Positions 22,562 through 41,937 of a stretch of DNA of 64,000 nucleotides are shown piece after piece. Origin of the DNA: an uncultured Acidobacteriota bacterium (GTDB lineage Bacteria; Acidobacteriota; Terriglobia; UBA7540); NCBI GenBank assembly GCA_963804995.1, contig CAWDSK010000006.1, forward strand, positions 1,536,001 to 1,600,000, written 5' to 3'. Positions within the stretch are counted from its first letter, which is position 1, and each line of letters starts with the position of its first letter. Below the pieces are notes generated by a model that saw only the letters and a program-made list of their open reading frames with translations, made no database searches and was not told the DNA's origin. The position numbers were made by a program, and so were the translations under genes.

Positions 22562-22764
22562 GGATTTCACCACAGAGTGCCAGCCCGCCGGATGGCGGGT
22601 CCATAGTGCCGGAAATGAAGTTTCTGGAGAGGCCACAGAGGTCACGGAGGACAGACGCGGATAAAAACTGACGGTCAACAAATCAGGGAACCTTAATTCC
22701 AAATCATTCCAGCAGAAGTACTTTTCTCTGTGGTCTCTGTGCGCTCTGTGGTGAAGCTCTTCTT
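22562..22764. repeat. inverted-repeat element with 9-bp period (family D, CACAGAG)
   Basis: GGATTTCACCACAGAG...GTGGTCTCTGTGCGCTCTGTGGTGAAGCTCTTCTT; both ends shared with 51830-52269. Confidence 0.8.
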
Positions 22765-34072: not shown

Positions 34073-35748
34073 TGACTACGGACCTCCCAATTTCGGGACA
34101 GCAGGAAACGCACCGGCCTGAGATCTCCGCGGAAAATGTGCGCTCCACACTCACCCGGCGCTCGCGTTGGTGGTTTTGGGGGGCAATGGCGTTGGCCTTT
34201 CTGCGAGTGCTACCGGCGCTGCGCTTTCCGATTGGGCGTGACGAGGCTACCTACGCCGTTATCGGTCAGGGCTTGCTGCGCGGTCAACTCCTCTACCGCG
34301 ACCTTTGGGACAATAAACCACCCGGCATCTTCTATATCTACGCGGTCATCGTGAAGATTTTCGGCCCGGTGATGTGGTCAATCGGAGTTGTCGACATTCT
34401 CTGGGTAATCGCGATCTCCCTCTGCATCTTCTTCTTTGCCAAGCGGTACTTGGGCGCGCCGGCCGCTGCTGTTTCCGTGGTCTTCAACGTGGTTTGGCAC
34501 TCATCGTGGGGTTACATTCACGCCGCGCAGCCGGACGATTTCCTGACCTTGTTCGTGTTCCTCGCATACTTCATCTTGATGTCGGAAAAAGCGCGGACCT
34601 GGACGGTCAACTTTGCCGCGGGCCTGGTGTGCGGTGCGGCATTCTGGGTAAAGTACAACGGTGCGCCGTTCTTCCCGGTATTGACCTTCCTGCCTTATCT
34701 CGACTTCAGCCGCTTTGACGAGCTGCCGCGGCGGGTGCGCTTGACCATTCCCTGGCCGCTATGGTTCAAACGTACGCTGGCCGTCGTGGCCGGCTTCGTG
34801 CTCGTGCTCCTCGCCGTCATTGTTTACTTCTGGGCCGTGGGCGCGTTGCCTGCCCTGATGGAGGTGCAATTCGAAGTTCTGCCGCGCTATGGGTCAATCT
34901 TCCTCGAACATATGCCGCGCTACTATTACTTTGCCATCGCCTTGACTCGCCTGCATCTGGGAGCGTGGACCGAGGCTGCCTTCGGAGCAACTTTGCTGGT
35001 TGCCTGGTGGCGGCGGCAACTGCGTGTCGTCGCGCCCGTGCTGCTGATGGCCATCGCGGGGTTTATCTGCACGGCCTCGCAGATTCGATTCAGCTCCTAC
35101 GCTTTTGAATCGGCCTTCCCTTTCTTCGCCATGCTCTGGGGGTACTTGACCGTTCAACTTTACGAGGGCTTTGTCTACCTGCGTGGTTTCTTCAACCGCC
35201 GGGGGTGGCGTTTGGCGAGTATCCTTTTGTGGCTGGTGGCGGCGGAGGTGGTCTACTACCCGCTTCCGGAGTACGCGTTTAGCATCGGGGAAGATTACCG
35301 GGCCCTGGCGGACTGGGTGCATAACCCGCAACTATCATACGAAAATTATCTTTTCCCCCATCCCCTTGAGAAGCTGCATGACCAGTTGGCAATTATCAAC
35401 TATGTGGAAAAGAATTCGGCGCCGGGGGAGGGAGTCTTTGTGTGGGGCACGGCTCCGCTGATTAATTTTCTGACGCAGCGTCCAAACCCCAGCCGTTTTG
35501 TCTCCAACTTTGCGCTGATTTCTCCCTGGGGACCGGCGCGCTGGCGACAGGAATTGATCGGAGAATTGCACCGGAAGCCGCCACGATTCATCGTCGTAGC
35601 GCGTCACGATAACATCCCCGTGGTGACGCTTACGAATGATGATTCCGAGCAATGCCTGAAAAAGTACCCCGCCCTGGCTGCGTTGATTGCGGAGGGTTAC
35701 GAAACGGCCGAAGACCTGCAGGATTTTGAGGTTTACCAAGTTAAATGA
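34072..35748 (+). CDS. GT-C glycosyltransferase (ArnT/PMT-like)
   Basis: RDEATY, YRDLWDNKPPG, about 12 TM helices; TAATG coupling. Confidence 0.85.
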   Translation: MTTDLPISGQQETHRPEISAENVRSTLTRRSRWWFWGAMALAFLRVLPALRFPIGRDEATYAVIGQGLLRGQLLYRDLWDNKPPGIFYIYAVIVKIFGPVMWSIGVVDILWVIAISLCIFFFAKRYLGAPAAAVSVVFNVVWHSSWGYIHAAQPDDFLTLFVFLAYFILMSEKARTWTVNFAAGLVCGAAFWVKYNGAPFFPVLTFLPYLDFSRFDELPRRVRLTIPWPLWFKRTLAVVAGFVLVLLAVIVYFWAVGALPALMEVQFEVLPRYGSIFLEHMPRYYYFAIALTRLHLGAWTEAAFGATLLVAWWRRQLRVVAPVLLMAIAGFICTASQIRFSSYAFESAFPFFAMLWGYLTVQLYEGFVYLRGFFNRRGWRLASILLWLVAAEVVYYPLPEYAFSIGEDYRALADWVHNPQLSYENYLFPHPLEKLHDQLAIINYVEKNSAPGEGVFVWGTAPLINFLTQRPNPSRFVSNFALISPWGPARWRQELIGELHRKPPRFIVVARHDNIPVVTLTNDDSEQCLKKYPALAALIAEGYETAEDLQDFEVYQVK

Positions 35749-37475
35749 CGGTTGCTTCCATACCCAAGCCCCAGCCCGGACGCGCCTGGTTACTTGCCGG
35801 GCTGGTGGTGGTTTTCCTGCGAGCGCTTCCCAACCTGCGCTTCCCTATCGGACGTGACCAAGCCACCTACTGCGTAATCGGGCAGGGTCTGCTGCACGGG
35901 CAACTGCTTTATCGTGACCTTTGGGATAACAAACCTCCCGGAATTTTTTATATTTACGCGCTGATCGTAAAGATTTTCGGGCCGGTGATGTGGTGCGTGG
36001 GAGCCGTGGATATCCTTTGGCTGCTGGTCATCTCCTGCTGCATTTTCTATTTCGCCCGCCGTTATATGGGCGCCCCGGCCGCGGCCCTGGCGATGGTCTT
36101 CAATGCTGTGCGGCACTGCCGGCAAGGGTACATCCACGCTGCGCAGCCCGAGACGTTCTTGATGCTCTGTGTGTTCGCGGCCTATTTTCTGTTGCAGGAA
36201 AGAGAACCCTCACCGGCCCTTGCGCCCCGGGCGCTCTCCCCCCAAGAGGGAGAAGTAGGGGCAAGCCATGGCGTGCCCTTACGACCATCCTCTCATCAAG
36301 AGTACGGGCAAGTTTGGACCCTGCGAATGGCGCGATGCTTTGCGGCGGGGATGATCCTGGGCGCGGGGTTTTGGCTGAAATACAACGCCGTGGCGTTTTT
36401 CCCTTTCGTCGCCCTGGTGCCGTTTTTGGATGTCCGGGAGTTGGATGAGGGCCTGGGCCGCGTCCGCCTGGCAATCCCCTGGGGGGACTGGTTCAGGCGC
36501 ATGCTGGTGGTGGGCGCGGGCTTCGTTTTCGCGGTCGCCGGGGTCCTGGCCTATTTCCGGGTTTCGGGCGCCTGGCCGGCTTTGATGGAAGTGCAGTTTG
36601 AAGTGCTGCCGCGCTACGGCGCCATGGTCTTTCATTGGGACCTCGCCTTCCTCCTTTGGGCTATCCGGCAAAGCCAATTCCACCTGGGATTCTTTGCCGA
36701 AATCATGGCGGCGCTCACTTTGTTGATCGGCTGGAGGCGCCGCGAGATGACCTGGGTCGCGCCCGCATTATTGCTGGGGTTCGCCGGATATGTTGCCGCC
36801 GCCATGCAGGGGCGTTTCCATGCCTATTATTTCGAAACGTGCTATCCCTTCTTTTCGATGTTCTGGGGATATGTGTGCGTCAAGACATACGAAGGCTTCA
36901 AATACCTTCGGCAGGTATTCGCTCGAAGGCAATGGGGCATGGCCCGCGCCCTGTTGTGGGTACTGCTGGCCTGCCTCGGCTCATCCTTGTTTCCGGAAGA
37001 GAGCATCCGGGTCGCCCAGCAATATCATTTCCTGGCGGACTGGTGGCGAAACCCGGAGATGTCCTACATCGTTTACTGGTGGCAACTCCCGCTTGATAAG
37101 CTCTCGGGGCAACTGCGGGTCATCCACTATCTCAAAGAAAACTCCAGCCCCGAGGATGAGGTTTACGTGTGGGGAACTGCTCCGCTCATTAATTTCTTGT
37201 CGCAGCGGAGGAATCCCAGCCGTTTCGTTTCCAACCTGGCGCTGATCTCCACCTGGGGGCCCCCCCGCTGGCGCCAGGAACTGGTTCGTACTCTGGAAAC
37301 GAAGCGCCCGCGCTATATCGTGGTGGCGCGCAACGACTCCATCCCCAGCGTTTCCTATACCCTCATGGACTCGGAACAATACCTCCAGGTCTATCCCGCC
37401 TTGCGTGACCTTTTGGATCGCCAATACCAGGTGGGCGTTAACTTCTGGGAATTCGAGGTTTATCAACGGAAATAG
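35745..37475 (+). CDS. GT-C glycosyltransferase, tandem paralog with repeat-derived loop
   Basis: RDQATY, YRDLWDNKPPG; colinear with the upstream paralog. Confidence 0.85.
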   Translation: MTVASIPKPQPGRAWLLAGLVVVFLRALPNLRFPIGRDQATYCVIGQGLLHGQLLYRDLWDNKPPGIFYIYALIVKIFGPVMWCVGAVDILWLLVISCCIFYFARRYMGAPAAALAMVFNAVRHCRQGYIHAAQPETFLMLCVFAAYFLLQEREPSPALAPRALSPQEGEVGASHGVPLRPSSHQEYGQVWTLRMARCFAAGMILGAGFWLKYNAVAFFPFVALVPFLDVRELDEGLGRVRLAIPWGDWFRRMLVVGAGFVFAVAGVLAYFRVSGAWPALMEVQFEVLPRYGAMVFHWDLAFLLWAIRQSQFHLGFFAEIMAALTLLIGWRRREMTWVAPALLLGFAGYVAAAMQGRFHAYYFETCYPFFSMFWGYVCVKTYEGFKYLRQVFARRQWGMARALLWVLLACLGSSLFPEESIRVAQQYHFLADWWRNPEMSYIVYWWQLPLDKLSGQLRVIHYLKENSSPEDEVYVWGTAPLINFLSQRRNPSRFVSNLALISTWGPPRWRQELVRTLETKRPRYIVVARNDSIPSVSYTLMDSEQYLQVYPALRDLLDRQYQVGVNFWEFEVYQRK

Positions 37476-37559
37476 GGAAGAGCTTACAGATCACCACCAA
37501 GACACCAAGGCACCAAGAAAACCCATTCCCAAGGAAAAGGAAAGAAAAGGGAAAGAAGA

Positions 37560-38042
37560 ATGAACCACCAAGACACCAAGGCACCGAGAGAGCCCATTCC
37601 CAGGGAAACGGATGAGGTTGCTACGAAAGTCGTCGATGCGGCATTTGCGGTGCATTCGGCGCTCGGCCCGGGCCTGCTGGAGAGCGTCTACGAGATCTGC
37701 CTGGTGCACGAACTGCAAAAGCGTGGGCTGAAAGTGGAACGGCAAGTCTTACTTCCCGTCGTCTACGACAACCTTCACCTCGATGCCGGATTGCGGCTGG
37801 ACCTGGTCGTGGAAAAGCAGGTGATTATGGAACTGAAAGCTGTCGAGACACTGTTGCCGGTTCACACAGCTCAATTGCTCACCTATCTCAAACTTTCCGG
37901 CCATCGGCTAGGTTTGCTAATAAATTTCAATAGCAGCCTCCTCAAGCAAGGGATCCACCGACTAGAGCGGTTTCGATTTAAGTGCTTACATATCCGCAAG
38001 AGGCGAAGAAGTTTGTGCACTCGCTTGGGGAGACCGTATTGA
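37560..38042 (+). CDS. GxxExxY protein (PD-(D/E)XK-like); last two codons displaced by IS630
   Basis: LGPGLLESVY, RLDLVV, ELKAV, AQLLTYL, GLLINF; pre-insertion end GIHRLAL* rebuilt with 38987-38995. Confidence 0.93.
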   Translation: MNHQDTKAPREPIPRETDEVATKVVDAAFAVHSALGPGLLESVYEICLVHELQKRGLKVERQVLLPVVYDNLHLDAGLRLDLVVEKQVIMELKAVETLLPVHTAQLLTYLKLSGHRLGLLINFNSSLLKQGIHRLERFRFKCLHIRKRRRSLCTRLGRPY

Positions 38043-38984
38043 GCAACTCCCCGATTTCCTTCCAGAGGGCCTCGATATCTCGTTTGGCGGCTTTGCGGAG
38101 CCGCGCCTTGAGTTTGGCAAAGAACTTTTCTATCGGGTTCAGATCGGGAGAGTAGGGTGGCAGAAAGAGTACGATGGCTCCGATCGCGGTGATCGCTTCC
38201 TGGACTCCCGCCACCTTGTGACTGCTGAGGTTGTCGAGGATCACGGTGTCTCCGGGTTGGAGCGTTGGGCACAGGAATTGACGCACATAAGCCAGAAACA
38301 TCTCGCCGTCCATCGGCCCGTCGGTGACCATGGGCGCGGTCAATCGGCGGCGGCGCAGGGCGCCCACAAAGGTCGTCGTCTCCCAATGCCCGTGCGGCGC
38401 CGAGTCGAGGCAACGCGTCCCTCTGGGCGCACGCCCGTAGCGGCGCGTCATGCTGGTCGATGTCCACGTTTCATCGATAAACACGAGTTTTTCGACTTCC
38501 ATCGTGGGCAGTGCTTGCCGCCACGCTCGGCGCGCCTGCTGCACGTCCTCGCGTTCTTGCTCGCTGGCGTGCAGCGTTTTTTTTGAAGGTAAGATTCCAT
38601 TTGTTCAACTGATGCCACAAGGCGCCGATCTTGATCGATACGCCTTGCTCGACCAGCCGTGCGCATAACTGGGCCAAGCTCAGACCCGGCTCCTGTTCGA
38701 TCCAGGCGCGCAGCACGGCCTCCATCTCCGCGACCCGCGAACGGCGATGCCCGCCGATCTGAAAACTGGTGCGGTTGCCCGTTTTCTGCTCCCGTCCCCG
38801 AACCTGGTAAACCCAGACGCGACTGACTTCCAGCCGCCGCGCAATCGCCGTCGGACGTTCACCGCGATCCAATGCCCATAACACCCGATCCCGCAAGTCC
38901 TGTGAATAAGATTGCATCCTTGCCTCCCCTCTACCGGCAGAGGCATCATAGCACATAATGTATACACTTAAATTAAAAACGCTC
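37965..38984 (-). mobile_element. IS630-family insertion sequence, 1020 bp
   Basis: TIR GAGCGGTTTCGATTTAAGTG / GAGCGTTTTTAATTTAAGTG (17/20); TA duplicated at 37963-37964 and 38985-38986. Confidence 0.93.
37978..38917 (-). CDS. IS630 transposase, OrfA/OrfB joined by -1 frameshift
   Basis: MQSYSQDLR HTH; A8 slippery run at 38577-38584; FIDET, DNLSSHK, LPPYSPDLNPIE. Confidence 0.93.
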
Positions 38985-39146
38985 TAGCCTTGTGATTCTC
39001 TTGGTATCTTGGTGGTTGATTTTTCTATTTTTTCCCGAGTGAATTGATTTTCTTGGTGCCTTGGTGTCTTGGTGGTTGCTTTTTCTTTCCCTTTTCTTTC
39101 CTTCGCCTTGGGAATAGGTTTTCGTGGTGCTTTGGTGTCTTGGTGG

Positions 39147-41648
39147 TTATATTTCCACCTTGCTGAAAGCGAGAACCACCATTGTGGCCAGGGTGAGCAG
39201 CGAAATAACCAGTCCGGCGCGCAGGCCGCGCTGGTGGTAGTCATAGCGGATCTCGTGACGGCCGGCGTCCGCGTAAACGGCGCGGAAGATTTGGTTGGCG
39301 CGCCAGACGGTGGCAGGGTGACCGTCGATCGTGGCTTCCCAACTGGGATCGTACCGGTCCAGCAGGACGACATAGCCGGGGCGGGAGAGTTGGGCCTGAA
39401 GGGTAACCGAGTAGGGATCGCGATGCACAATTTCGACCTGGCCGGCTGAGCCCTCGCCGCGCACCGTGGGCGCTGAGCCTTCCGGAGCAGCAAGAATCAC
39501 GGTGTTGAGCACGTCAAAATCCCGCGAGGCCAAGTGGTCGAGGGTCGCCGCGGAGTCCGTAGAGAACAACGAAGTGCCTGCCACGTAAGTCCGGGGAACA
39601 AAGCACAGGTCCTCATACAAACGGCTCGGCACGGAGGAGCCATTGAAGACGTTGCCCAGGGGCCGAGTGGCAGCCGTGTCTGCGGGCAGGGGCCGGATGA
39701 TGTACTTCACATTCGTGCGCCCCAGCAGGCAATCGACGCGCAAGGGATTCTCGGCCTGTTGGCTCTGGTAAATTTCGATGTCGTAGAGATAAGGCGGCAG
39801 CGAGCGCTCCAGGTCCAGGTTGATGCTGCCCTCGACTTGGTTAATCATGGAACCGGCGGCGAGCTGGGTCCGGGTCTGGAACGCCCCTTGCGCCATGGGT
39901 GGAAGGTCCGCAGCTTCCGGAACAGAGTCAAAATTGACAAAGGTTTGCAGGTTCTTGGTATCCGGCGTCAGAGTAATGGGCCAGAAGGAAGTGACGCGAT
40001 AGCTTCCGGGTGGGTCCTTGAACTCAGCCAGCACCGGAGGCCGATAGGTGAAAAAGCTTTTGGGTACGGTAGGGTTGGCGTCAGAGTTTACCATGACCAG
40101 TTGGGCCATCGCCAGTAACGCAAACCCATAGAGTCCTGGACGCGCCCACCTTGCCCTTTGCTCAAACCCGACGGCCAGAACAATTCCCCCCAAGCAGAAT
40201 CCGGCCAGGCCAGGCAGTTGGACCTGGAGCGTGGAGACAAGAAATTCCGGCATATGAAGAAGGTTAAATGGGGTTTCCCCGAGGGTGTTCAGCACGTGGC
40301 GGGTGGGCGACTCAATCAGCGTCGGCGCCAGCCAGGCGATGGCCAGGACGAAGACAATGGCGCCCAAGAGGACCTCGAGGGGCACGACCAGCCGCTGTCG
40401 GCGGGCCTTCCAGAGAGTTGTGGGCGAGAGCAGCGCGTCCAGCCCCCAGCCCGCCAGAATCGCCAGAAGGAACGTGACCATGACCAGCAGCTTGACGGGA
40501 TAGCGCACCACCGTCAGGGGCGGTATCAGCAGATACGCCAGGGAGAAGAAAGGTGTGAAGTGGCCAAAGGAAAGCAGCAGGAAAATACCGGCCGCGCCCA
40601 CCAGGAAGTTGCGCCGGCGGTCAGAGCCCAAAGCCCACCCGGCCAGCGCCAGGAAGAGCGGTATGAAGCCCAGGAAGACTGAAAGAAAGTAGGGAACGTT
40701 GCGGTCGGACATCAGCCACAGCCAGCCCGTGGGACCGGCAACGCCGGAGCCGAAGAAGTCCGGTATGATCATTTCCGGCAAGGAAAAGGGATTCACGGCC
40801 CAGTTGGCGGTCTCGCGAAAACGCAAGCCCTGCACGCCTCGACGCGAATGGCTGAGCAGGTCGGAGGCGGGCAGGAACTGGACTGCACAGAGCAATAACA
40901 TTCCAGTGCCCACCAGAAAGAAGATAGTGGCCAACCGGAAATTCGGTTTGGACCAAAGTTTGTTCCAGGCGCCGCAGCGATACATGGCGTAGGCGAACGA
41001 CAGCCCAAACGTCGCCAGCATGGTCAGCGGTTCCCCTGCCAGCCATTGGCAGGAAAAAATGCCAATCAGCAGCACCCACGGCCGGAACCGCCGGCTTTCC
41101 AAAGCCCGGTCGGTGGCGAGCAAGGCCCACGGAATCCAAGCTGCGCAGGCCGATTGATTGTAGAGGTCGCCGAGGGAAAGCACAGGCCCACTGAAGGTAA
41201 AAAAGAAAGCCGCAAAGAAGGCTGCCAGGTAAGTCTGTCCCCACCGGCGCGCCAGCACGTAGACTCCGATACCGGCCAGAGCAAAATGCACGATGAAGTG
41301 CAGCGTGTAGGCGATATCGGCCGGCAGCAGAACAATCAGGAGTGTAAAGGGATAGAAGAAGAGCAGGTTGGGATTGGCCAGCACCGCTTGCCCGTAGTTT
41401 AAATAAGGATTCCAGTAGGGAAGAAACCCCTGGTGGCAAATGTCATGAATGAACCGGGCGCTCGGGTAGGTGTAATTGTAAACGTCGCGATAAAAGAACA
41501 TCACGGAGGTGAAGATCACCCTCCAGAACATGCCGATGAGGCTCAAGACCAGCAGCGCCATCGCGGCCAAGTCACGGCGATTTAGTCGCAAAGGTTGCGG
41601 CGTCGCGTCAGGGGCTTCCGTTGCAGGGTGGGAATTGAGTGTCGCCAT
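39147..41648 (-). CDS. YfhO-like GT-C membrane protein
   Basis: RD..NYTYP, PYWNPYLNYG, many TM helices, C-terminal YDPSWEATIDG..RAV..GRHEI. Confidence 0.85.
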   Translation of the reverse strand: MATLNSHPATEAPDATPQPLRLNRRDLAAMALLVLSLIGMFWRVIFTSVMFFYRDVYNYTYPSARFIHDICHQGFLPYWNPYLNYGQAVLANPNLLFFYPFTLLIVLLPADIAYTLHFIVHFALAGIGVYVLARRWGQTYLAAFFAAFFFTFSGPVLSLGDLYNQSACAAWIPWALLATDRALESRRFRPWVLLIGIFSCQWLAGEPLTMLATFGLSFAYAMYRCGAWNKLWSKPNFRLATIFFLVGTGMLLLCAVQFLPASDLLSHSRRGVQGLRFRETANWAVNPFSLPEMIIPDFFGSGVAGPTGWLWLMSDRNVPYFLSVFLGFIPLFLALAGWALGSDRRRNFLVGAAGIFLLLSFGHFTPFFSLAYLLIPPLTVVRYPVKLLVMVTFLLAILAGWGLDALLSPTTLWKARRQRLVVPLEVLLGAIVFVLAIAWLAPTLIESPTRHVLNTLGETPFNLLHMPEFLVSTLQVQLPGLAGFCLGGIVLAVGFEQRARWARPGLYGFALLAMAQLVMVNSDANPTVPKSFFTYRPPVLAEFKDPPGSYRVTSFWPITLTPDTKNLQTFVNFDSVPEAADLPPMAQGAFQTRTQLAAGSMINQVEGSINLDLERSLPPYLYDIEIYQSQQAENPLRVDCLLGRTNVKYIIRPLPADTAATRPLGNVFNGSSVPSRLYEDLCFVPRTYVAGTSLFSTDSAATLDHLASRDFDVLNTVILAAPEGSAPTVRGEGSAGQVEIVHRDPYSVTLQAQLSRPGYVVLLDRYDPSWEATIDGHPATVWRANQIFRAVYADAGRHEIRYDYHQRGLRAGLVISLLTLATMVVLAFSKVEI

Positions 41649-41732
41649 CGAGCCTTTAGATGATCGAGTCTAATATAGCACTCCTGACCGCACAATCCTG
41701 CATGGGCAATTTGTTGGGGGGGTAAACAACTA

Positions 41733-41937
41733 GTGTGGTGTCCCGTGTTAGAGTTGACAATGGGTAGAACCCCCTCACCCGTCTGGCCTCGGCTGATGAG
41801 AACGCCTCGGCCAGCCACCCTCTCCCCCAAAGGGGCGAGGGCAAGGGAATTTACTCTCCCCTCGCCCCTTTGGGGGAGAGGGGATGGGGGGTGAGGGGGT
41901 CGGACAGCCTTGTCAAATATTAACCGGGACACCACAC
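41733..41937. mobile_element. MITE-1 copy, 205 bp
   Basis: Same TIRs and TA flanks as 29848-30052. Confidence 0.9.

Follow-up and report, generated by a model that had tools for sequence, protein, structure and literature searches.

In REPIN-RAYT systems, as at the locus described here, a gene lies between cognate inverted repeats and gene-less doublets occupy extragenic space; according to the portion of 10.1101/2021.07.10.451892 cited here, RAYT trees track those of the host and RAYTs do not move. The seg/mob genes of T4-like phages encode nucleases, lie between conserved genes, often lack a promoter, and spread site-faithfully while co-converting their flanks (PMC2988022, in the sections cited); the cassettes studied here resemble them in patchy occupation of one intergenic site, in lateral spread and in co-conversion, the last seen as the tract of a single event. 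The intervening sequences of 23S rRNA with an S23p ORF, as outlined in part of PMC4990558, share with them a unit of ~430-640 nt, complementary ends that form a stem, one small ORF in the loop and a patchy distribution; one junction is occupied alternately by GxxExxY and four-helix-bundle cassettes. Cas4 (SSO0001), Hjc and proteins of the restriction-endonuclease fold have a PD-(D/E)XK core in common with GxxExxY proteins, whose family PF13366 is entered as 'Unknown' in the relevant section of PMC3424549. A search of the literature, covering the main texts of mostly non-subscription papers, found no description of the gene-plus-arm unit.

Results

Structure of the armed unit

The window, a 64,000-nucleotide stretch of DNA from an uncultured Acidobacteriota bacterium, had been described in a sequence-only reading as carrying a GxxExxY gene in a unit of about 640 bp, between ungapped 100-bp inverted repeats of 90% identity built from 9-bp CACCAAG units in ~70-bp blocks. 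These dimensions were confirmed: the left arm (37490-37589, + strand) and its inverted copy, the right arm (39051-39150, − strand), are identical at 90 of 100 ungapped positions (101 of 119 for the extended pair), and the unit measures 639 bp after in silico removal of an IS630 element. The CACCAAG words recur in 9-bp phase, in blocks that start at 37493 and 37564 in the left arm (spacing 71 bp) and at 39000, 39060 and 39131 on the right (spacings 60 and 71 bp); the inner right block (39000-39026, − strand) lies directly 3' of the native stop codon, likewise in sister cassettes. The left arm, with its two 71-bp-phased blocks, contains a purine-rich ribosome-binding stretch and the ATG of the gene (37560), and its block 1 duplicates the 5' end of the gene itself. 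The proposal that the left repeat encodes the start and N-terminus thus held for the ATG and MNHQDTKAPR but not for EPIPRET, which comes from a weaker extension reaching 37608-37612. The 7.55-Mb genome has 40 strict three-word arms and 2 Mb of order-4 Markov sequence has 0, which places the arm structure far above chance expectation.

As also noted from the sequence, the unit fills the space between two convergent genes and overlaps one stop codon. Upstream and co-directional with the cassette lies a PMT_2-family glycosyltransferase gene (35745-37475, + strand), whose stop codon (37473-75) is 14 bp from the left arm; downstream and convergent is a gene for a YfhO-like membrane protein (39147-41648, − strand; weak Pfam match below cut-off), whose stop codon (39147-49) is provided by the right arm. 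The GxxExxY ORF as read now (37560-38042, + strand) encodes 160 residues, of which 1-135 are native and the last 25 derive from the IS630 end. This IS630-family element (NF033545; 37965-38986, − strand, 1022 bp including one TA copy; ORFs 38471-38956 and 37978-38544) has 30-bp terminal inverted repeats and a duplicated TA target (37963-64 and 38985-86), and sits in the last codons of the gene, where its tail of 25 residues replaces the last two native ones; the displaced end of the original gene, with TGA at 38993-95, is found at 38987-38995 (+ strand). Removing the element restores a gene of 137 codons ending in IHRLAL-stop, the same length and ending as in the closest database homolog (P0002, 93%). 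The IS630 insertion is secondary to the cassette, and its DDE protein is the only one at the locus.

The sequence-only reading had called for a search for empty sites, and we found the GxxExxY gene at none of the 18 relative loci with both flanks. Since all 18 lack such a gene at the junction, the window unit is an insertion. The gene ends overlap at nine of these loci, and at two of the 18 the window junction holds a remnant from another arm lineage, its gene deleted. No sequencing run contained half of the search words, and among the contigs of four runs no piece spanned the unit. Read joints from ~37517 to 39050 were considered as empty sites and rejected, as they are gene-less hairpins from other loci.

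Arms and repeat words at homologous loci

A check of the flanks of many GxxExxY genes for inverted 9-bp arrays had been suggested, and most homologs do have inverted arms: these were detected at 48 of the 72 homologous loci examined, the remaining 24 falling under the arm threshold, and at only 1 of 124 controls. The best stem is mostly 20-45 bp long at these loci, and the 100-bp length in the window is a local elaboration. All six full paralogs in the window's own genome are armed, with several different words among them, the other five being 42-56% identical to the window copy. Divergent paralogs number up to ten per genome, and broken copies are frequent.

When repeat words were mapped on the protein tree, 14 changes were required versus 36.3 after shuffling, showing that the arm word is co-inherited with the protein and that each protein lineage has its own word. 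Columns associated with word class concentrate in the first helix (residues 17-30); among five independent pairs tested for residue-to-word co-evolution, too few to bear out the earlier proposal that the protein recognises its own repeats, none was significant, and the clustering of words with proteins may be plain co-inheritance. Homogenisation of arms within a locus was not supported, an arm's best match being its own partner in only 3 of 8 cases.

Exchange of cassettes and access to new junctions

Cassette trees were compared with flanking-gene trees at two fixed junctions, in two genera other than that of the window. In the genus of G045 (a Hymenobacter record), cassette-flank distance correlations were 0.00 and −0.07 versus 0.48 between the two flanks, which agree only partly with each other; the 17 intact cassette proteins form one clade (support 83), and the flank clade was rejected on cassette data by the AU test (p = 1.7e-10). 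At the radA junction (a Bacteroides record), congruence of cassette and flank was rejected in four AU tests, and distances were still correlated (0.50). Here the cassettes of L283 and L284 are identical over 475 bp with flanks 7.9% apart, yet L301 and L302, whose flanks are likewise 7.9% apart, have genes 38% apart and different words. The arm begins 0-1 nt past the stop codon in 12 of 12 radA copies. In L285, the sequence is sister-like up to −4, and 13 of the 14 sites between +27 and +198 are donor-like, giving a one-sided donor tract of ~200 nt in the downstream gene; this is a single event, three other trios not being clear, and a further donor-like tract, unrelated to it, spans −724 to −583. 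At the asd|dapB site of the host genus the cassette-flank correlation was 0.27, calculated from five copies only. The comparisons at the G045 site and radA show that the cassette at a given junction passes laterally between related species, leaving most of the flanking DNA behind.

New junctions are, as judged from the sequences, also reached occasionally: the window's protein clade is found at no fewer than four unrelated junctions within one genus. At trpE|trpG, different protein clades share a junction (AU p = 0.008, monophyly being tested on a hand-chosen 39-row subset), whereas at trpD|trpC the grouping of two cassettes as one clade was not rejected (p = 0.20). A clade at several unrelated junctions and a junction shared by different clades fit reading of the arms better than reading of a long target. 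No cassette match was found in the phage search, and the plasmid search gave only eight records, none mobilizable.

In the near-isogenic pair L284/L286 at radA, the cassette substitutes for an 80-bp spacer with no target duplication; none was seen at trpE|trpG either, and the asd|dapB and window junctions, read by eye, are compatible with 2-4 bp duplications. The earlier idea of a transposon-like or homing-like element was thus borne out as regards insertion, arms, occupation of unrelated junctions and site-faithful exchange, but the classical transposon signature, namely consistent target duplication and identical multicopy elements, was not seen.

Decay, gene-less hairpins and other cassettes

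Three of 18 and three of six copies were broken in two copy sets, and the gene-less L249 is the sister of the gene-bearing L250; cassettes are thus shown to decay, as far as these relationships can be read, into pseudogenes and gene-less hairpins. The genome has 131 arm-bearing sites, only four of them in called ORFs, and an internally deleted derivative retains both ends (G000 C6:1724469-1724665). Against a background of 21%, 25 of 126 hairpin sites lay in divergent promoter regions as delimited by a crude gene caller, i.e. these regions were not avoided. In the CGCAGAG family, 48 of 79 sites adjoin a different inverted repeat, compared with 0 of 19 for CACCAAG, and another element may be the carrier of many gene-less hairpins; given these 48 sites, the copy number of gene-less CGCAGAG hairpins was rejected as proof of mobilisation by the GxxExxY protein, but that of CACCAAG hairpins was not. 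One junction hosts unrelated cassette types (GxxExxY, four-helix bundle, other hairpins and other genes). The four-helix-bundle cassettes contain no nuclease and occupy the same kind of junction, alternating with GxxExxY at one, a sign that cassettes with hairpin arms may not need this enzyme to spread.

Predicted fold of the GxxExxY protein

The protein matches TIGR04256 with 149.6 bits (curated cut-off 35) and PF13366 with 145 bits (cut-off 22), and no further families; 7961 of 8000 scored candidates passed E ≤ 1e-20, and an Atlas search gave no usable match outside PF13366. Its GxxExxY motif is G38-L-L-E41-S-V-Y44. In 89 sequences E41, D81, E91, Q105 and Y109 are invariant and K93 is at least 90% conserved; E41, D81, E91 and K93 are the putative catalytic residues, and Q105 and Y109 belong to a QxxxY motif. 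The structure model (pLDDT 92) has a PD-(D/E)XK, restriction-endonuclease-like fold, and both the alpha/beta core and E...D...E-x-K are present in the fold matches and conserved residues. The earlier assignment to PD-(D/E)XK-like proteins therefore agrees with residues and model alike, and the window protein, which keeps this site, is predicted to be a nuclease.

The best structural match was SSO0001 (Cas4; Z 7.5, rmsd 3.7, 97 residues aligned), tied with BglII, BpuSI and others, and Hjc resolvase followed at Z 6.3; no match was outstanding (none with E ≤ 0.001 or Z ≥ 8), and no DDE, HUH or recombinase fold appeared. A sequence search for solved structures returned no relative, and the conserved columns of the 89 sequences contain no cysteines suited to an Fe-S cluster. 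The modelled fold does not tell what the substrate would be. The dN/dS values were 0.02-0.10 in the 11 of 17 pairs that were not saturated, showing that the protein is under purifying selection; the cassette is nevertheless dispensable.

Transcription and RNA folding

No promoter-like site was found in 37300-39300 and Rfam gave no match at E ≤ 1 in the same interval; the PMT_2 gene is the likely source of cassette transcription, and the upstream gene is co-directional with the cassette in 68 of 84 loci. The suggestion that the RNA forms a long stem was supported in part, in that the whole unit folds in silico into a ~100-bp stem spanning the start codon. Among arm mismatches, G-U pairs were not enriched on the coding strand (82 vs 98, 21 vs 24 and 8 vs 19, from noisy local alignments of 42/80, 11/31 and 8/20 loci), and for this reason selection on RNA alone is not supported.

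Discussion

We favor, with a probability of roughly 0.45, the explanation that this unit belongs to a family of selfish, promoter-less cassettes, in which a small PD-(D/E)XK gene is carried between lineage-specific, 9-bp-phased arms at intergenic sites, usually just after a stop codon, spreads in a homing-like manner with occasional jumps and decays, its nuclease acting on its own arms. The nuclease would recognize these arms when paired as a hairpin or cruciform, and nicking or cutting at the arm boundary could render the cassette recombinogenic. Host recombination would then copy it to the matching junction on a related chromosome, whether incoming or resident; one end of the copy would be joined sharply, and a short tract would be co-converted at the other. 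In the transcript, paired arms may mask both the start codon and the ribosome-binding site, which would hold nuclease levels down. Counting against this explanation are the inconsistent target duplication, the lack of an RNA-pairing bias, the nuclease-free cassettes at such junctions, the recombination seen in the flanks themselves and the loci under the arm threshold. An extension that we hold only tentatively, and consider rather doubtful, is that GxxExxY proteins are the motors of an undescribed, cross-phylum class of mobile DNA: a minimal nuclease would read a lineage-specific 9-bp-phased hairpin code at its own ends and place the cassette immediately behind stop codons, by a chemistry other than DDE, HUH or recombinase and with no need of a long target, after which the cassette would spread between species at that junction, with several mutually orthogonal lineages per genome.

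The gene could instead be cargo with a host role, for example in defence or RNA turnover, with regulatory RNA hairpins for arms, through which the insertion is tolerated much like a 23S rRNA intervening sequence; ordinary host recombination within the conserved neighbouring genes would then exchange cassettes at permissive junctions. Several unrelated cassette types at one junction, the background recombination evident at the G045 site and radA, and a ~100-bp stem over the start codon below a mostly co-directional gene all agree with this. However, it would not account for the lack of a coding-strand G-U excess or of a bias of hairpin sites against divergent promoter regions; a crossover as close as 3 nt to a heterologous block, seen in one event, is unexpected in plain homologous recombination, and up to ten divergent paralogs per genome with frequent broken copies fit selfishness better. 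We regard this account as unlikely. Somewhat less likely still is a classical free-standing homing endonuclease whose cut in the cassette-less allele falls within or beside a conserved neighbour gene, double-strand-break repair copying the cassette and the arms serving only to regulate expression or aid rare jumps. Lateral exchange within a site-specific clade, the co-converted tract in the downstream gene and the pattern of invasion, decay and loss are what it predicts, and free-standing T4 endonucleases are likewise intergenic, often promoter-less and flank-converting in the sections of PMC2988022 cited above. On the other hand, a single domain of 137 residues would probably leave little room for long-target reading, one clade occupies at least four unrelated junctions in a genus, the conserved arms with their lineage-specific words are left unexplained, and the phage search found no copies.

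A small transposon of the conventional type with terminal inverted repeats, whose MITEs would be the gene-less hairpins, could explain the repeats themselves, the deleted derivative with both ends, the 131 arm-bearing sites and the possible 2-4 bp duplications (by eye) at asd|dapB and the window junction. We consider it improbable, as identical multicopy elements were absent, the other full paralogs being only 42-56% identical, L284/L286 shows replacement of a spacer with no duplication, and the protein lacks a DDE, HUH or recombinase fold.

The very large GxxExxY family has no listed function, and the present analysis supplies a substrate hypothesis for it. Natural material for a test is at hand in genomes that hold cognate and non-cognate arm words and in the near-isogenic pair of filled and empty alleles. 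If the selfish-cassette explanation is true, a widespread homing-like element would exist in bacterial chromosomes beyond introns, inteins and phages, many unexplained intergenic hairpins would be accounted for, and a 137-residue nuclease with swappable repeat specificity would be of practical interest.

The cassettes differ from the systems that they most resemble. RAYT is an HUH/Y1 tyrosine transposase whereas the GxxExxY protein has the PD-(D/E)XK fold; REPINs are short palindromes, whereas each GxxExxY arm is a 9-bp-phased array and pairs with the one at the far end; and in contrast to RAYTs, GxxExxY cassettes disagree with their flanks in AU tests at two junctions (a comparison with flanks, not with a whole-genome tree) and reach new junctions. 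From 23S rRNA intervening sequences, as presented in the cited part of PMC4990558, they are set apart by their position between protein genes rather than in rRNA and by a cargo with a nuclease fold. The seg/mob genes, in the cited sections of PMC2988022, reside in phages and encode GIY-YIG and HNH folds, with no counterpart of the conserved inverted arms in those sections, whereas GxxExxY cassettes are found in bacterial and archaeal chromosomes and encode a protein with no separate DNA-binding domain.

Anatomy and insertion of the window cassette

The inverted arms of the window cassette (37490–37589 and 39051–39150) match without gaps at 90 of 100 positions and are made of CACCAAG words in 9-bp phase, as the sequence-only reading had described, and the ORF at 37560 scores well over the TIGR04256 and PF13366 cut-offs. 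An IS630 is lodged in a duplicated TA within the last codons of the GxxExxY gene; with the IS630 taken out, the unit measures 639 bp (about 640 bp in that reading) and the gene has 137 codons, the usual length among its closest homologs. The start codon and N-terminus are indeed arm-encoded (MNHQDTK..., common to most of the 120 closest homologs), and close homologs are named as Terriglobia proteins, which makes an acidobacterium the probable host. On the left, the arm begins 14 bp beyond the PMT_2 stop codon; on the right, it provides the stop of the convergent YfhO-like gene, the overlap noticed earlier. Relatives of the IS630 in the window's own genome (G000) are a full one (90.5%, C6:801392–802414) and a partial one (92.7%, C6:298150–298503). 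Two more arms, of CACAGAG type, lie in the window at 22752 and 52257. In the ORF listing, the YfhO-like gene is preceded (41650–41850) by GC-rich hairpin repeats, which we take to be the type found beside DUF559 genes.

Twenty-nine relative loci were fetched via the YfhO-like protein, and both gene ends were visible in 18 (one genome contributes two of these loci, and in one locus an additional gene separates the ends). Since none of these 18 had a GxxExxY match at the junction and the flanking genes overlap in 9, the window cassette is an insertion; looking for empty sites, as had been proposed, yielded junctions that lack the gene. What L087 and L094 retain at this junction is the remainder of a cassette of another arm lineage whose gene has been deleted, and therefore at least two cassette lineages have occupied it. 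Members of the window's protein clade were found in 3 of the 28 further genomes of this genus, at different junctions, whose neighbour genes we judged from their translations. At yet another junction, the own genome carries an internally deleted sister of the window cassette (L205, C6:1724311–1724737) that retains both ends; here too, the far right arm repeats the gene's 5′ end in inverted orientation, and we assume its neighbours to be two genes resembling type I restriction-modification subunits.

Arms across the family and the host genome

Among 80 homologous loci, 250 nt were available on both sides in 72, and an inverted match scoring at least 14 (taken as an arm) was present in 48 of these 72 compared to 1 of 124 shifted controls, so that the proposed survey of GxxExxY flanks extended the arms well beyond the window. 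In the own genome, each of the six full paralogs is armed; the words are CACCAAG, CGC(A/T)GAG, CAC(A/T)GAG, CACAGAG and CGCAGAT. In the 104-protein tree (7 sequences with stops omitted), words changed 51 times (74.5 when shuffled) and their last three letters 14 times (36.3 when shuffled; 91 classable rows); this clustering shows co-inheritance and not recognition, because independent protein-word pairs are too few.

Across the own genome, 131 sites contain a total of 224 arms; 4 of the sites lie within called ORFs, and the sites have no orientation bias. In the largest arm family, 48 of 79 sites adjoin a second, unrelated inverted repeat, which could be the carrier of these sites; none of the 19 CACCAAG sites adjoins it. 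About 70 short sites (e.g. C2:415811, C6:1872741) are CGCAGAG hairpins inside an outer 14–16-bp inverted repeat, often itself within a REP-like palindrome, making a three-layer composite repeat, and a 1.9-kb locus with similar ends (L206) contains a 525-aa transposase-like ORF. In L245–L263, L272–L304 and L207–L235, many right arms terminate in GGTGA a few nucleotides upstream of the following start codon (3–10 nt at radA), a motif that resembles a ribosome-binding site.

Exchange at fixed junctions

Five junctions were followed in other genomes. At that of the G045 genus (Hymenobacter record; 40 loci, namely the 20 best matches and 20 picked from the match table), the 30 loci with both flanks comprised, as classed by eye, 18 cassettes, 8 gene-less hairpins and 4 short spacers, scattered over the flank tree. 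Cassette distances did not follow those of the flanks (correlations 0.00 and −0.07; flank vs flank 0.48), and the flank clade was rejected on cassette data (AU test). Among 133 proteins, the 17 intact ones from this junction group together as a single clade (support 83).

At radA (Bacteroides finegoldii record and genus of G709), a cassette was present in 13 of 32 loci, and in 12 of 12 the arm follows the radA stop by 0–1 nt. The 475-bp cassettes of L283 and L284 are identical, with flanks that differ by 7.9%; in L301 and L302, whose flanks likewise differ by 7.9%, the genes are 38% apart and the words are not the same. Congruence of cassette and flank was rejected in four AU tests, although their distances nonetheless correlate overall (0.50). 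Compared with its empty sister L286, L285 is sister-like until 4 nt before the cassette, and between +27 and +198 it matches the donor at 13 of 14 sites; L284 behaves similarly (12 of 18 sites within 300 nt, p = 7e-6). Farther upstream is another, separate stretch of donor-like sites, and the pattern in three other trios was unclear. The final 240 nt of radA are the same in L284 and L286, and in L284 the cassette replaces an 80-bp spacer with no target duplication; such spacers may themselves be old remnants.

For trpE–trpG and asd–dapB, we take the neighbours to be the genes so named. At trpE–trpG in the family of G048, 7 of 31 loci have cassettes, whose proteins were rejected as one clade (p 0.008), and 7 have 10–34-bp spacers. 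Unrelated small accessory genes also lie after trpE in L210 and L213, and this junction is therefore a general insertion hot spot. At asd–dapB in the host genus, 6 of 27 loci carry a cassette (3 with internal stops), 7 of 27 have an overlapping stop and start, and one hairpin lacking the gene has a gene-bearing copy as its sister; right-end remnants there outlast loss of the gene. The junction of the G046 genus gave 2 GxxExxY cassettes and 13 loci with other inserts (387–697 bp), two of which were confirmed as four-helix-bundle genes (TIGR02436; L164, L169). Such genes, and repeats in 7-bp phase, take the place of GxxExxY cassettes in some loci of a junction and not in others (L164–L178, L246–L263), which suggests a parallel cassette family.

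The protein

E41, D81, E91, Q105 and Y109 are invariant in 89 sequences and K93 nearly so. Among the PD-(D/E)XK folds that the structure model (pLDDT 92) matches, no single relative stands out: restriction enzymes tie with Cas4 SSO0001 (Z 7.5), and Foldseek gave no match at E 0.001 or better. The gene is patchy in distribution and often broken despite a low dN/dS (0.02–0.10 in 11 pairs; 6 further pairs saturated). From conservation and the model, the protein looks like a working nuclease.

Mechanism and relation to known systems

The proposed mobile cassette is borne out by the insertion at the window junction and by exchange at fixed junctions elsewhere: the pattern is that of a cassette that invades, spreads laterally at a given junction, then decays and is lost, and that now and then jumps. 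No phage and only 8 plasmid records had a match. In the likeliest reading, to which we give a probability of roughly 45%, the nuclease would act on its own paired arms and host recombination would complete the transfer. We prefer it because one clade occurs at unrelated junctions, different clades share one junction, the protein leaves little space for a domain that would read a long target, and the one event that is clear ends sharply at the arm. Passive cargo carried at recombination-permissive junctions is a distinctly weaker candidate, classical homing, in which the protein would cut the empty allele, is unlikely, and a plain TIR transposon is improbable. Of the long RNA stem looping out the ORF, also raised by the sequence-only reading, it stands that the transcript can form a ~100-bp stem burying the start codon, but mismatches have no G-U excess on the coding strand.

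Our literature search found no description of the gene-plus-arm unit and only passing mention of the family name in the texts accessible to us; the accessible portion of PMC3424549 gives PF13366 as 'Unknown', and that of PMC3184786 holds nothing on it. That the cassette is a mechanistically new class is doubtful, and we class it as kin to known kinds of selfish element. As far as the accessible accounts go, rRNA intervening sequences are alike in shape only; REPIN-RAYT systems are alike in layout, but the GxxExxY cassette has neither an HUH enzyme nor vertical inheritance; and free-standing homing endonucleases are alike in behaviour, whereas the GxxExxY cassette is chromosomal and armed.
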